Source: Candidatus Thorarchaeota archaeon (GTDB taxonomy: Archaea; Asgardarchaeota; Thorarchaeia; Thorarchaeales; Thorarchaeaceae). Taken from it: a stretch of 7,230 nt of DNA. This document shows positions 2,791 through 7,230 of the stretch, in pieces. Position numbers and translations under genes: made by a program. The number at the start of each line of letters is the position of its first letter. Within the stretch, counting starts at the first letter, position 1. A model generated the notes under the pieces. The model searched no databases and had not been told where the DNA came from. It saw only the letters and a program-made list of their open reading frames with translations. The stretch is from positions 1 to 7,230 of the forward strand of contig PRDJ01000009.1 of NCBI GenBank assembly GCA_003345555.1, in the 5' to 3' direction.

Positions 2791-3024
2791 ATGTCTGAGG
2801 ATCGACGCAAATCGCCTTGGGCGCATGAGGATTCCGAAGTGAAGTGCCCCCGGTGCGGTAGTGCAAATGTATCTCGAGTTCTTGATACTTGGGCGCTGTC
2901 AAGAGGCATTCAGATATTCTCTTGTGCATCGTGCGGCAAGAAGTTCTACGACCGCGGGCTCGATGATTACCAGCCGACTTACAGCGAGACCGACAGGACC
3001 ATGGAAGAGCAGCGTGAAGACTAA
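2791..3024 (+). CDS. Small C4 zinc-ribbon protein
   Basis: 77 aa containing CPRCGS-x-IQIFSCASCGKKF (CxxC-x22-CxxC). SD GGTGA at 2781-2785 lies 5 nt before ATG 2791. The gene fills the gap between the methyltransferase and priL. Confidence 0.75.
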   Translation: MSEDRRKSPWAHEDSEVKCPRCGSANVSRVLDTWALSRGIQIFSCASCGKKFYDRGLDDYQPTYSETDRTMEEQRED

Positions 3025-3025
3025 G

Positions 3026-4165
3026 GTGATTACTGCGAGCGCTGGACTGACAAGACTTCAGATGTTACGGTATCCCTTTTCAGTGGAGGCTAGGGAGCTC
3101 TCACAAAGACAAGCCCGTGACGTGGAGACTCTGGTTAGTCTGCTCGAAACTTCAAGAAACGAGTATGTTGTCGAGGAAGCCGAGAATCGTGTTATTGCCG
3201 CCCTTGACCAGTCTGAGATTCTCACAGTTAACAACAACGATGACAGGGACTTCTTAATCTATCCCACATCAAGACTCATCGTCGAAAAGATAGGTGACTC
3301 CCGTCTGAAGGAGTATCAGGCCGAAGCAGAATCAAAAGCAGTCAACGGGCATTTGGAGAACGAAAAAGATGACATTGTACTCCACCTCTGCAAATCCGCG
3401 TTCAGTTGGCAAGTGGAGTCAACCGGAAAACCGGTGCAACGCGCAAGTCTTCCTTTGTGGCTTCGGACCTTCGACTTTCGTATGAGATTTGAAGATTTTC
3501 TGGAGATAGCACCAGAGTTCCACCAATCACCTTGGAAGCTCGTGAACAGGTATCTTGACGCTGGCTGGTTGCCTGTGCAAGGCCTTGAGCTGAAACGGCT
3601 GATGTCGGGCAAGTTCAAGCAGCTTATCCTGATGAGCAGTCTCGAAGTACGCACGCTTCCAGCGAGAATCACAGAGGCAGTACAGCGCGTAGAGAGTGAG
3701 CTTCGTGGGAAGATTAAGACGACCCAGCCTGTCAAGATCACTGAGAGTATCGTTACAGCCTTCCCTCCTTGCATAAGGCAGATGCACGAGGACTCGATAC
3801 GTGGGAAGAACCTCCCTCATGAGGCAAGGTTCGCTCTGGCTGCCTTTCTCCTGAAGATAGGAATGAGTCAGCAAGAGGTACTGGGAGTATTCAAATCATC
3901 ACCGGACTTCGTAAGCAGCCTGGCGGAATATCAAGTTCGACATATCTCGTCGAAGTCAGGTGGCGAAGGCTATACTCCTCCTGGCTGCAGGAAACTTCAA
4001 GGCAATGGTCTCTGTCCGGTTTATCAGGGGTTGGAGTATGACCCTCTTTGCGAGTACGTCAAACACCCGCTGGGCTTCTACAAGACGCGTGCTTGGGAGA
4101 TAATGAAGGGGATTGAGAACCATTCATGGTATGCTTCCAAGAGGAAGAAGCAGCAGAGTTTCTGA
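3026..4165 (+). CDS. priL: Archaeal DNA primase large subunit (Fe-S domain-containing)
   Basis: N-terminal LRYPFSVEARE, central WKLVNRYLDAGW, and C-terminal Fe-S domain FPPCI...NLPHEARFALAAFL...EYQVRHI...YTPPGCRKLQGNGLCP...DPLC..VKHPLGFY with four Cys. Start is uncertain: GTG 3026 is preferred, ATG 3062 is possible. The ORF-track start at 2861 overlaps the Zn-ribbon gene and is unlikely. Confidence 0.93.
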   Translation: MITASAGLTRLQMLRYPFSVEARELSQRQARDVETLVSLLETSRNEYVVEEAENRVIAALDQSEILTVNNNDDRDFLIYPTSRLIVEKIGDSRLKEYQAEAESKAVNGHLENEKDDIVLHLCKSAFSWQVESTGKPVQRASLPLWLRTFDFRMRFEDFLEIAPEFHQSPWKLVNRYLDAGWLPVQGLELKRLMSGKFKQLILMSSLEVRTLPARITEAVQRVESELRGKIKTTQPVKITESIVTAFPPCIRQMHEDSIRGKNLPHEARFALAAFLLKIGMSQQEVLGVFKSSPDFVSSLAEYQVRHISSKSGGEGYTPPGCRKLQGNGLCPVYQGLEYDPLCEYVKHPLGFYKTRAWEIMKGIENHSWYASKRKKQQSF

Positions 4166-4170
4166 GTCTT

Positions 4171-5016
4171 TCATCTCTTTGGCTTCTTTCCGCCCGTCCG
4201 AGTGTAGTAGTACAGGTACTCTTGAGCATAGCCTGCGTACTTGCCGAAGTAATCCCTAGCCGCTCTCGATTTCTTGCTATATGACTTGCCTACATCTGTG
4301 AACAGCCCATAGTGCTCTTGGATAACGCGTTCTATCCATACATCAATTGGAAATGCCTCCAGAAACCCAAGTGAAAAGAGACACACACAATCGGAGACTT
4401 TGTCCCCGACGCCATGAAGGTCCTTGAGCACTTCATGTGCCTCTTCGTATTTCATCTTCTCCAGTTCTTCGGGCTTGATATCACCTGCAAGGATGGACGC
4501 CGTGGATCTTGAAACGAAGTCTGCGCGCCAGTCAAGGCCAAAACCCCTCAGTTCGTCAATCGTTGCTCCTGATAATTGCTCGGGCGTCGGGAAGCCATGT
4601 AGTTCATGTCCTCTGAACTGGTACGCGGGACCGTAACGGTCCCTTATGCGCTGCACCATTCTCTGGATATTCGGGATGTTGTTGCGGATTGAGCATAGAA
4701 AAGAGACTAGGCATGGGAAGAATGGGTCCCGGGCTATTCGAATGCCCGGCGCGAAGGTGATGCATGTCTTCAACAGTTCGTCTCTAGCAATCTCCTGTTT
4801 TATCTCACGAATGGGATCGCGGAGTCCAAGTAGTGTACTAATGTCAATCTCATCAGCTGAAGACTCATACTGCAGTGTGTCTCCTTTCTGCACTACATAG
4901 ACAACTTGCCCGATGTCCGCGTTAACATATCCTTCGCCTTCCTTAGTCCAGCAAAAGGTCTGTCCACACTCTAGAGTATCAGTCAAGTCGAAGTCGGTAA
5001 CTGTGAGGCTTTTCAC
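4171..5016 (-). CDS. ogg1: 8-oxoguanine DNA glycosylase / AP lyase (OGG1-type: OGG_N plus HhH-GPD)
   Basis: N-terminal DLTDTLECGQTFCW (OGG_N), GIRIARDPFFPCLVSFLCS..NNIPNI, FPTPEQL, HhH motif LHGVGDKVSDC with the catalytic Lys, AFPIDVW with the catalytic Asp, and C-terminal YAGYAQEYLY. Confidence 0.9.
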   Translation of the reverse strand: MKSLTVTDFDLTDTLECGQTFCWTKEGEGYVNADIGQVVYVVQKGDTLQYESSADEIDISTLLGLRDPIREIKQEIARDELLKTCITFAPGIRIARDPFFPCLVSFLCSIRNNIPNIQRMVQRIRDRYGPAYQFRGHELHGFPTPEQLSGATIDELRGFGLDWRADFVSRSTASILAGDIKPEELEKMKYEEAHEVLKDLHGVGDKVSDCVCLFSLGFLEAFPIDVWIERVIQEHYGLFTDVGKSYSKKSRAARDYFGKYAGYAQEYLYYYTRTGGKKPKR

Positions 5017-5106: not shown

Positions 5107-5176
5107 GTTGGCGATGATGACACACCTATGAGTGATTGAGGAAGGATGAACGACCCTAGGGTATCTGAGCCGCAAC
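5107..5176 (+). ncRNA. Box C/D methylation-guide sRNA
   Basis: Box C ATGATGA at 5114-5120; 15-nt guide; D' TTGA at 5136-5139 (alternative GTGA at 5132-5135); short loop; C' AGGATGA at 5143-5149; 15-nt guide; box D CTGA at 5165-5168. Terminal stem GGC(5110-5112)/GCC(5169-5171) is in exact K-turn register with a 3-nt bulge. It lies fully within an intergenic gap and is followed by a TTTT run at 5178-5181. Confidence 0.82.
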
Positions 5177-5233: not shown

Positions 5234-7230
5234 TCAGACAACTGTCTCGTGTCGCTGGTAGACTCTGTACTTGAGAAACGCATACATGGCAAATAGCATG
5301 GCTGTACTCAAGAGCGCAGCAGGAGCGACAGCTGTTATCCAGTGCTCCCTCGGGTTCCAGTCAATACCATCGGGGATTCCATCGTAGTCGGTGTCAGGAT
5401 TTGTTGGCGAGAGGCAATACTCCACCTCATAGGCATCACCCAGCCCGTCACCATCTGTATCGCCGCTGTTTGGGTTCAAACCATTGACTATCTCAAACAT
5501 ATCGCTGAGGGCGTCCATGTCCGTATCAGGTGACAGAGGATTAAGCCCGATTGCGACTTCGAGACCGTCATCGAGGCCATCACTGTCAGTATCGACCGTC
5601 AAGGGGTTTGTTCCATATGTGTCTACTTCAACTCCATCATCAAGCCCGTCCTCGTCGGTGTCGGGGTTGATGGGATTTGTCCCAAGAGTCATCTCGGCGC
5701 CGTCCAGCAGCCCATCTCCATCGGTATCCTGGATGAATGGATTGGAACCATGCAAGACCTCCCAGTAGTCAGGTGCTGTATCGCCATCAGTATCTGGATT
5801 TGTCGGGGTTGTGCCCAAGCCAAGCTCGGCATCATCGGGCAAGCCATCCCCGTCTGTATCGACTGAATACGGGCTTGTACCTATACTAACCTCTAGAGTA
5901 TCAGATAGGCCGTCGCCATCGATGTCATTAAGGAAAGCAACAGTGGCCGTGACCAGTGCCGCATTACTGCCAAGATTGCTGACCGTGAAATTGAACTGAC
6001 CTGCGTGTTTTGATAGATACTTCACAACGATGAGGCCGCCGTCTCCCGTTCGTTGGTATAGAAGCTGATGAGAGTCCGCATCGGCTATGGTGGCAGAGAT
6101 TGTTGTGTTCTCGGTCCATCTGACTGTCGCATTAACGAAGCCATTGAACGTCAGCATGAGTTGCTCGGAGACCTGACCCAGTGGATTCAATGTGCTCGTC
6201 ACATAGAATGATGCTGCATCACTACCAAGCATTCCGACATATGCTATGACACAAGCTGCACAGGCTGTGATTTCTTTCGCCTTGTCATAGCTGTACTTGC
6301 TGTTGCTCCACACATCATTGGACGTGTCGTGATATGTGTCATACCAGTATCCTTGAGAAATGTGGATGGCTGGTCTCCCCACCTGCCAAAGCTCGTATGC
6401 CATGGATTTCTGAGCTATGTCCTGGTCGGCAGCATACTGGAGCCTGCCTGCTCCTTTCGAAGTGGATAGTCCCAGCAAGATGTCTGTTGTCCATCCCCCG
6501 TCTTGGTACCTAGAGCTGCCTAGATAGCTTCTCAATGATATCTTCGTTCCATAAAGGAAGCCAATATCATCAAAGAGTATGCGTTCGAATGACAAGGATG
6601 TTACAGTCTGGGTTTGAGTGGAGTCTAGCCAAGAAACGAAAGCTCTAGCTCCAAGGTCGGCGGTGGAACTGCTTGAGTCCCTGTTTATCAAGACGTAGTA
6701 GACATCGCAATACAGAGTGTATTTGCCCAAGACTCGTGCTATTTCGAGAACGGCCGCTACGCTTGAAGCCACTTGGTTGGCGCCCGGCGTTGACCCGGAG
6801 CTAACCACGCCCGTGACAAGAATCGCCTGTCGTGGAGCCGGGCCGACACCGTTCTTGATCGCAAGCAGAGTTCTGTGATCGGTCACTTGACGGAAAGCAA
6901 GTTGCCCTGCAGTGTTGTTCTTCAGAGTATCATTTGCCCACACCCATGCGTTCTGAAGAATCGCTGACGGAGTCTCATTCACTTCGTTCCATACTCTTCC
7001 GGGATATAGTAGCGACAAATCCCGTGTGTAATTCAATAAGCGATTCGCTGAAGTTGCACTCCATATTTCATCCCAGAGTTGAGTAACATTGAAGTCTGAA
7101 GATGACCCGGTTATGACAGGATTCTCGGGGTGCTCGGGCCGTATTTGGGCGATCGGGCCGGCTGAATGAATCGCGCATACTATGATTGCGAGTGTTAGAA
7201 GCGCGAATCCGCTTTCGGCTCGGACCCATC
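5234..7230 (-). CDS. Secreted, C-terminally membrane-anchored protein: degenerate M28 peptidase-like domain + beta-sandwich + TSP3-like repeats + TM helix (5' end outside the window)
   Basis: The frame stays open from the ORF-track TTG at 7036 to the window edge and adds a signal-like segment (FALLTLAIIVCAIHSAG). M28 scaffold: AILVTG..S...PGANxxASSVAAVLEIARVL...DVYYVLIN...YHDTSND. C-terminal hydrophobic helix WITAVAPAALLSTAMLFAMYAFL followed by KYR and a short tail. Eight N-x-S/T sequons in the ectodomain. Confidence 0.85.
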   Translation of the reverse strand, partial: WVRAESGFALLTLAIIVCAIHSAGPIAQIRPEHPENPVITGSSSDFNVTQLWDEIWSATSANRLLNYTRDLSLLYPGRVWNEVNETPSAILQNAWVWANDTLKNNTAGQLAFRQVTDHRTLLAIKNGVGPAPRQAILVTGVVSSGSTPGANQVASSVAAVLEIARVLGKYTLYCDVYYVLINRDSSSSTADLGARAFVSWLDSTQTQTVTSLSFERILFDDIGFLYGTKISLRSYLGSSRYQDGGWTTDILLGLSTSKGAGRLQYAADQDIAQKSMAYELWQVGRPAIHISQGYWYDTYHDTSNDVWSNSKYSYDKAKEITACAACVIAYVGMLGSDAASFYVTSTLNPLGQVSEQLMLTFNGFVNATVRWTENTTISATIADADSHQLLYQRTGDGGLIVVKYLSKHAGQFNFTVSNLGSNAALVTATVAFLNDIDGDGLSDTLEVSIGTSPYSVDTDGDGLPDDAELGLGTTPTNPDTDGDTAPDYWEVLHGSNPFIQDTDGDGLLDGAEMTLGTNPINPDTDEDGLDDGVEVDTYGTNPLTVDTDSDGLDDGLEVAIGLNPLSPDTDMDALSDMFEIVNGLNPNSGDTDGDGLGDAYEVEYCLSPTNPDTDYDGIPDGIDWNPREHWITAVAPAALLSTAMLFAMYAFLKYRVYQRHETVV
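5351..5926 (-). repeat. Tandem TSP3-like Ca2+-binding repeats (8 full units of 22-23 aa plus 1 partial)
   Basis: Consensus DTDxDGLxDxxExxxGxxPxxx, e.g. DIDGDGLSDTLEVSIGTSPYSV, DTDGDGLPDDAELGLGTTPTNP, DTDEDGLDDGVEVDTYGTNPLTV, ending with DTDYDGIPDGIDWNP. Confidence 0.9.

Follow-up and report, generated by a model that had tools for sequence, protein, structure and literature searches.

A Thorarchaeotal box C/D sRNA with an interrupted guide predicted for helix 74 of 23S rRNA

The short interval between two protein genes of a Candidatus Thorarchaeota archaeon raises the question of whether it encodes a box C/D sRNA and, if so, which ribosomal nucleotide that RNA would direct to methylation. The window, the whole stretch of 7,230 nt analyzed here, had been interpreted from its letters as carrying a D guide for 2'-O-methylation of helix 74 (H74) of 23S rRNA through a canonical, perfect 10-bp duplex. 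We find that positions 5110 to 5171 are a genuine box C/D sRNA gene of this Thorarchaeote. The gene is real and its RNA of an ordinary class, and the sole point of interest is an imperfect guide that is found throughout the family. Judging from sequence comparison, we put at about 60% the probability that it works as a single guide methylating 23S C2441 (E. coli numbering) despite a mismatch.

The sRNA gene and its homologues

The sRNA has the elements by which an archaeal C/D sRNA is recognized, namely a box C RUGAUGA, a box D CUGA, and a terminal stem (K-turn), together with the non-consensus boxes GUGA and AUGAACG, which can form a D'/C' K-loop (Table 1). Because the alignment of homologues (A1) fixes boxes D' and C', the spacers measure 11 and 12 nt, in agreement with the approximately 12 nt of archaeal box C/D sRNAs. 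The guide 5154 to 5163 reads CCCTAGGGTA, T5164 adjoins the box D CTGA at 5165 to 5168, and G5160 counts as the +5 nucleotide, all as the sequence-only reading had stated; the first letters of the stretch that it marked, 5150 to 5152, are part of box C'.

Table 1 Features of the sRNA locus and of the rival 16S site (window positions unless another gene is named)
Feature	Position	Strand	Basis or remark
Terminal stem, 5' arm, GGC	5110–5112	+	Pairs with 5169–5171 in the computed fold; family consensus GCGGC...GCCGC
Box C, AUGAUGA	5114–5120	+	Sequence; UGAUGA invariant in A1
D' spacer, 11 nt, probably a non-working guide	5121–5131	+	+2 to +5 vary freely among homologues
Box D', GUGA, non-consensus	5132–5135	+	G, G, and A columns invariant in A1
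Box C', AUGAACG, K-loop partner of D'	5146–5152	+	Alignment of homologues
D spacer (guide), 12 nt	5153–5164	+	G5160 is +5; A5158 is the mismatch to 23S C2443
Box D, CUGA	5165–5168	+	Invariant in A1
Terminal stem, 3' arm, GCC	5169–5171	+	Family consensus and computed fold
ogg1, Ogg1-type 8-oxoguanine glycosylase	4171–5016	-	Pfam OGG_N; divergent from the sRNA
Large protein with TSP3_bac repeats	5234–7228	-	Pfam PF18884; convergent on the sRNA
Rival 16S site CUACCCUGUGGAGG	nt 115 in the G002 gene		Site also written UACCCUGUGGAGG

Boxes C, D', C', and D, the terminal stem, the spacers, and the +5 rule are shared with archaeal box C/D sRNAs generally (L7Ae–Nop5–fibrillarin), whereas the first K-loop pair is swapped (G in D' and C in C', instead of the usual C in D' and G in C'), the D'–C' loop has 10 nt, and probably only one half guides. 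The second D'–C' pair is U-A in 7 genomes, U·U in 10, and A-U in 25. The combinations are GUGA/AUGAACG (7), GUGA/AUGAUCG (9), and GAGA/RUGAUCG (25), with A never opposite A, so that the K-loop pairs show compensatory states across homologues. As parsed, the first two bases of D' pair with C' in 42 of 42 homologues; this parse favoured pairing, and the box columns were already invariant in A1 beforehand.

The host genome (G000) encodes fibrillarin and Nop5 in tandem, plus L7Ae-family proteins. Rfam returned weak matches to five C/D families, all below the gathering threshold, and a scan with the sigma-70 promoter model, which is ill-suited to archaea, gave nothing relevant. In an RNA library run (X1; share 0.19), a single contig of depth 3.5 represents a homologue resembling that of G003; it carries no strand information, is a different copy from the window's, has adapter at box C, and extends 93 nt beyond box D. 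One further contig of this run falls on the neighbouring gene. Upstream, the gene for the primase large subunit (2861–4165) and ogg1 converge with 5 nt between their stop codons.

A search model built from 20 homologues was used to scan 86 genomes of the family and matched in 45 of them, covering 9 of the 16 genera; no homologue was found by this search in the other 7. The GGGUA-type guide occurs in 42 genomes, the window's and 41 others. At the 20 loci tested, ogg1 lies beside the sRNA in 16, and a TSP3-repeat protein gene is nearby in 10. A pattern derived from the sRNA and run on GTDB hit 44 contigs, of which 36 are archaeal, mostly titled Candidatus Thorarchaeota; we take the remaining 8, from scattered bacteria, as chance matches. 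Identical copies at two contig ends (G049:C1:8-62 and G049:C177:16-70) are probably an assembly overlap, and G023:C552 carries two related copies on a single contig. In addition, paralogues with the same scaffold (L161, second copy; L162; L163; L164; L165) have a D guide ending in GGUGAGCA, complementary to the 23S A-loop at about U2555, and in G009 such a paralogue lies approximately 60 nt from the H74 guide gene. A related sRNA in G072 (L166) has A at +5 and a guide ending in CUAGAGUAU; it would require U2441 or else leave a mismatch at +5, and G072 has no assembled 23S.

The predicted, interrupted duplex with helix 74

The window's genome contains one 23S gene, full in length (G000:C47:9388-12470, minus strand). 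At the target it reads UACCCCAGGG, and the 3' strand of H74 reads UUACCCCAGGGGUAAC; TACCCTAGGG is absent from the whole gene. Because this 23S has C2443, the duplex with the guide consists of 5 bp (U2438–C2442), an A5158·C2443 mismatch at +7, and 4 bp (A2444–G2447), giving 9 of 10 pairs with the mismatch 2 nt from C2441. All 79 Asgard 23S matches share C2443, and neither they nor the organism's own 23S contain UACCCUAGGG, the target sequence on which the sequence-only reading relied. That reading had undertaken to abandon its target should the organism's 23S differ there and offer no other 10-bp site. Formally this is the outcome: position 2443 differs, and no 10-bp target for the guide exists in the own 23S or in two 16S genes of the genus, used because G000 has no assembled 16S. 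Its helix placement at 2438 to 2447 and its target number 2441 agree with the alignment in PMC4644070 (suppl. 3), and the site and nucleotide are supported by the comparisons below; the 10-bp geometry is what has to be given up. In the 23S itself, C2443 has its partner, G2067, on the 5' strand at nt 2188, a pairing known from the established 23S structure.

Several explanations of the mismatch, and one other mode of pairing, were rejected. A relic of an ancestral U2443 is ruled out by the invariance of C2443, and a mis-binned 23S gene by its 97.7% identity to the G002 gene and by C2443 in 29 of 29 family matches. A split guide, with CGACC paired to GGUCG at about 23S nt 158, fails since its CG is part of box C' and G001 and G003 show no covariation. 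Avoidance of self-pairing is unsupported because the window's guide is a perfect 10-nt palindrome (5153–5162), with a predicted self-dimer of -19.4 against -14.8 for the target duplex.

The interruption is not peculiar to this genome. In every family homologue the duplex breaks, after 5 pairs in 6 genomes, 6 pairs in 35, and 7 pairs in 1, so that the longest uninterrupted pairing is 7 nt; the cause is nearly always an A at +7 or +8, and most homologues carry at +7 a G that fits C2443. These counts come from related genomes that are not independent: had the break arisen once, in the common ancestor of the family, its spread would need no selection.

The 15 distinct spacers do not differ at positions +2 to +6, and the Watson–Crick +5 G:C pair between G5160 and C2441 is invariant in 42 of 42 homologues. 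Position +1 may be T, A, or G and has box C, rather than rRNA, as a possible partner. Positions +10 and +11 are nearly always C or U, as pairing with G2446–G2447 requires, and most of the variation in the distal arm is likewise an exchange of C and U, both able to pair with G2445–G2448.

The target strand has peculiarities of its own. Position 2448 is G in Thorarchaeota and many other Asgards (G000:C47 23S nt 2577) and A in E. coli, which makes the strand 2438–2450 near-palindromic. An insert of approximately 33 nt separates C2440 from C2441, the predicted methylation site, in L091 (G007), L089 (G025), and L090 (G078); in G025, which also has the sRNA, the guide could pair only after splicing, since the insert splits the two nucleotides. 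Six family genomes (L091, L086, L092, L089, L095, and L090) have another insert, after GGGGUA (2450/2451), and the inserted sequence in these six 23S genes totals 146 to 793 nt.

Choice of target and competing readings

In one genome, the match to H74 proves little: among 1000 shuffled spacers, 12.6% reach 9 of 10 Watson–Crick pairs somewhere in 23S and 16S, so it is not significant by itself and the case for H74 rests on comparison. H74 is the only site with 9 of 10 Watson–Crick pairs in the own 23S and the genus 16S. When 14 guide variants were scored on cognate or near-cognate rRNAs, C2441 came out first among 597 rRNA alignment positions, by mean energy (-15.2 kcal/mol, with a score for each of the 14) as well as by worst-case energy, and it is among the top six sites in every genome tested. 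With the G000 spacer alone it ranks third, two G·U-rich sites being equal or better. Moreover, the homologue in G011, at a non-syntenic locus, combines the same D guide with a D' guide that forms 10 Watson–Crick pairs with C2498, 57 nt downstream (scored on the 23S of G004, as G011 has none). Uninterrupted canonical guides of the type CCCUGGGGUA occur in Asgard families f6 and f25, and the window's guide is one G-to-A change away from them. In the published predictions of Dennis et al. (2015, PMC4644070, suppl. 1), position C2715 of their alignment is the target of three sRNAs, S. acidocaldarius sR128, I. hospitalis sR425, and Methanopyrus kandleri sR16, the last of which is also assigned C2772; counted on that alignment, C2715 is E. 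coli 2441 and C2772 is E. coli 2498. Conservation, the double-guide homologue, and these predictions thus support H74, nucleotide C2441, as the predicted target. Our literature searches returned no experimental report of Nm at 2441.

The D' spacer offers nothing comparable. Its best Watson–Crick run in rRNA is 6 to 8 bp over nine genomes, with no rRNA target conserved among homologues; in the window's sRNA no rRNA run exceeds 7 bp, and there is no D' target within 100 nt (C2498). A candidate at 23S nt 383 with 7 Watson–Crick pairs was discarded, as it is lost in relatives. A double guide of the M. kandleri sR16 type is therefore found only in the G011 homologue. Directly after box C, the D' spacer keeps a Y-H-C-C motif (5123–5126 in the window), also in the paralogues with another D guide.

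The +5 rule and the assembly of the particle, in which L7Ae recognizes both the K-turn of boxes C and D and the K-loop of D' and C', and Nop5–fibrillarin then assembles on the sRNA, are established. In the mechanism that we favour, the sRNA is presumably expressed, its D spacer would pair with the 3' strand of H74 before the helix forms, and fibrillarin would add a ribose methyl group to C2441, which faces G5160. The reaction is probably less efficient than one directed by a perfect guide; the D' guide of a presumed ancestral double guide would have decayed. By the rule of at least nine consecutive Watson–Crick pairs spanning +5, which is relaxed for double guides only (PMC4644070), the window's duplex falls short and, D' being without a target, cannot benefit from the relaxation; under that rule the sRNA would be called an orphan. 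The palindromic spacer, with a predicted self-dimer stronger than its target duplex, also counts against this mechanism. PMC7089733 reports that methylation depends on how stable the duplex is and on an A-form geometry close to the target, and that activity is high when guide duplexes have 8 to 10 bp; methylation of C2441 is therefore likely but not assured.

A rather unlikely alternative is that the sRNA binds the H74 strand weakly or without methylating it, either as a chaperone of folding, keeping the near-palindromic 2438–2450 open, or as a decaying relic. The interruption after 5 to 7 pairs in 42 of 42 homologues, the degenerate D' spacer, and the 7 genera without a match would suit such an RNA, and conserved guide interactions that do not methylate are known in Pyrobaculum (PMC6009581). 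However, those described guides mismatch at +5 (PMC6009581), whereas here the +5 G:C is invariant, as are the positions around it from +2 to +6, and the boxes and K-loop pairs are maintained by compensatory changes.

We consider it improbable that the main or second target is a 16S site (Table 1), presumably near E. coli C136, with A at +7 as a compromise between two rRNAs. Each of the 13 family 16S genes has UACCCU there, and pairing of A5158 with the U brings the duplex to seven consecutive pairs. Where the guide has a CUCUA arm (G001, G003, G011, and G016), the 16S duplex is about as stable as that with H74 (-12.0 versus -11.8, -14.2 versus -14.1, and -15.0 versus -14.1). Nevertheless, the G000 guide pairs 2.9 kcal/mol more weakly with 16S than with H74 (-11.9 versus -14.8), and on average the family's guides too favour H74 (-12.4 versus -15.2). 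The good 16S duplexes require a target bulge of 1 to 2 nt, the G at +7 of most homologues suits C2443, and the second guide of G011 points to 23S.

It is similarly doubtful that Thorarchaeota keep the break by selection, be it for dual service to 23S C2441 and the 16S UACCCU or for quick release of the near-palindromic H74 strand. If they did, C/D guiding in this Asgard lineage would work through a short seed and tolerate mismatches, at a place where an intron immediately precedes C2441 in some relatives.

Other AUACCC sites, namely 23S nt 139–145, the 16S 790 loop (C796), and a tRNA anticodon arm (C39), are highly improbable targets: each offers 6 to 7 pairs with +1 included, but +1 varies and can pair box C, the 23S site becomes AUAACCU in G016 while the guide is unchanged, the 790 site pairs just 6 nt, and across 86 genomes the tRNA-type pattern matched only sRNA genes and scattered places.

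Relation to known guides

Returning to methylation of C2441 as the preferred reading, one of the closest known guides is M. kandleri sR16 (PMC4644070), whose D guide is likewise aimed at 23S 2441 with the same GGGUA core, and which shares its second target, C2498, with the G011 homologue. It differs as a double guide whose 10 paired nucleotides are mismatch-free (one G·U), whereas the window's RNA has A·C at +7 and no D' target. Similarly, sR128 and sR425 share the predicted D target, and the sR128 core is one G-to-A change from the window's guide; unlike the window's sRNA, both have uninterrupted duplexes and a D' target approximately 17 nt upstream (PMC4644070). Their targets are predictions for thermophiles, not measured modifications (PMC4644070). 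By our own reading of the published sequences (PMC4644070), the D guide of Pyrobaculum calidifontis sR16 also fits H74, with an A·A mismatch at +8 as in most Thorarchaeota homologues; its authors give no target, and it retains an sR128-like D' guide. N. equitans sR14 was dropped as a guide to U2441, as its authors place it at E. coli 2438.

The helix 74 site, hitherto predicted in three archaea that are hyperthermophilic or thermoacidophilic, would thus extend to Asgard archaea, for which our literature searches found no C/D sRNA catalogue. The 15 interrupted guides on one invariant target form a natural test set for the mismatch tolerance of the archaeal C/D particle. The gain is modest, since class, mechanism, and site were already known.

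A search of the genome for other 10-bp guides gave 16 matches against 4 to 18 with shuffled rRNA and is therefore uninformative. ARAGORN finds only 17 tRNAs in G000, and in many of them the introns lie outside the canonical position. Another candidate C/D sRNA lies at about G000:C12 11750–11830 on the plus strand, its D' guide forming 9 pairs with 23S AGCUGGGUU (approximately U2580).
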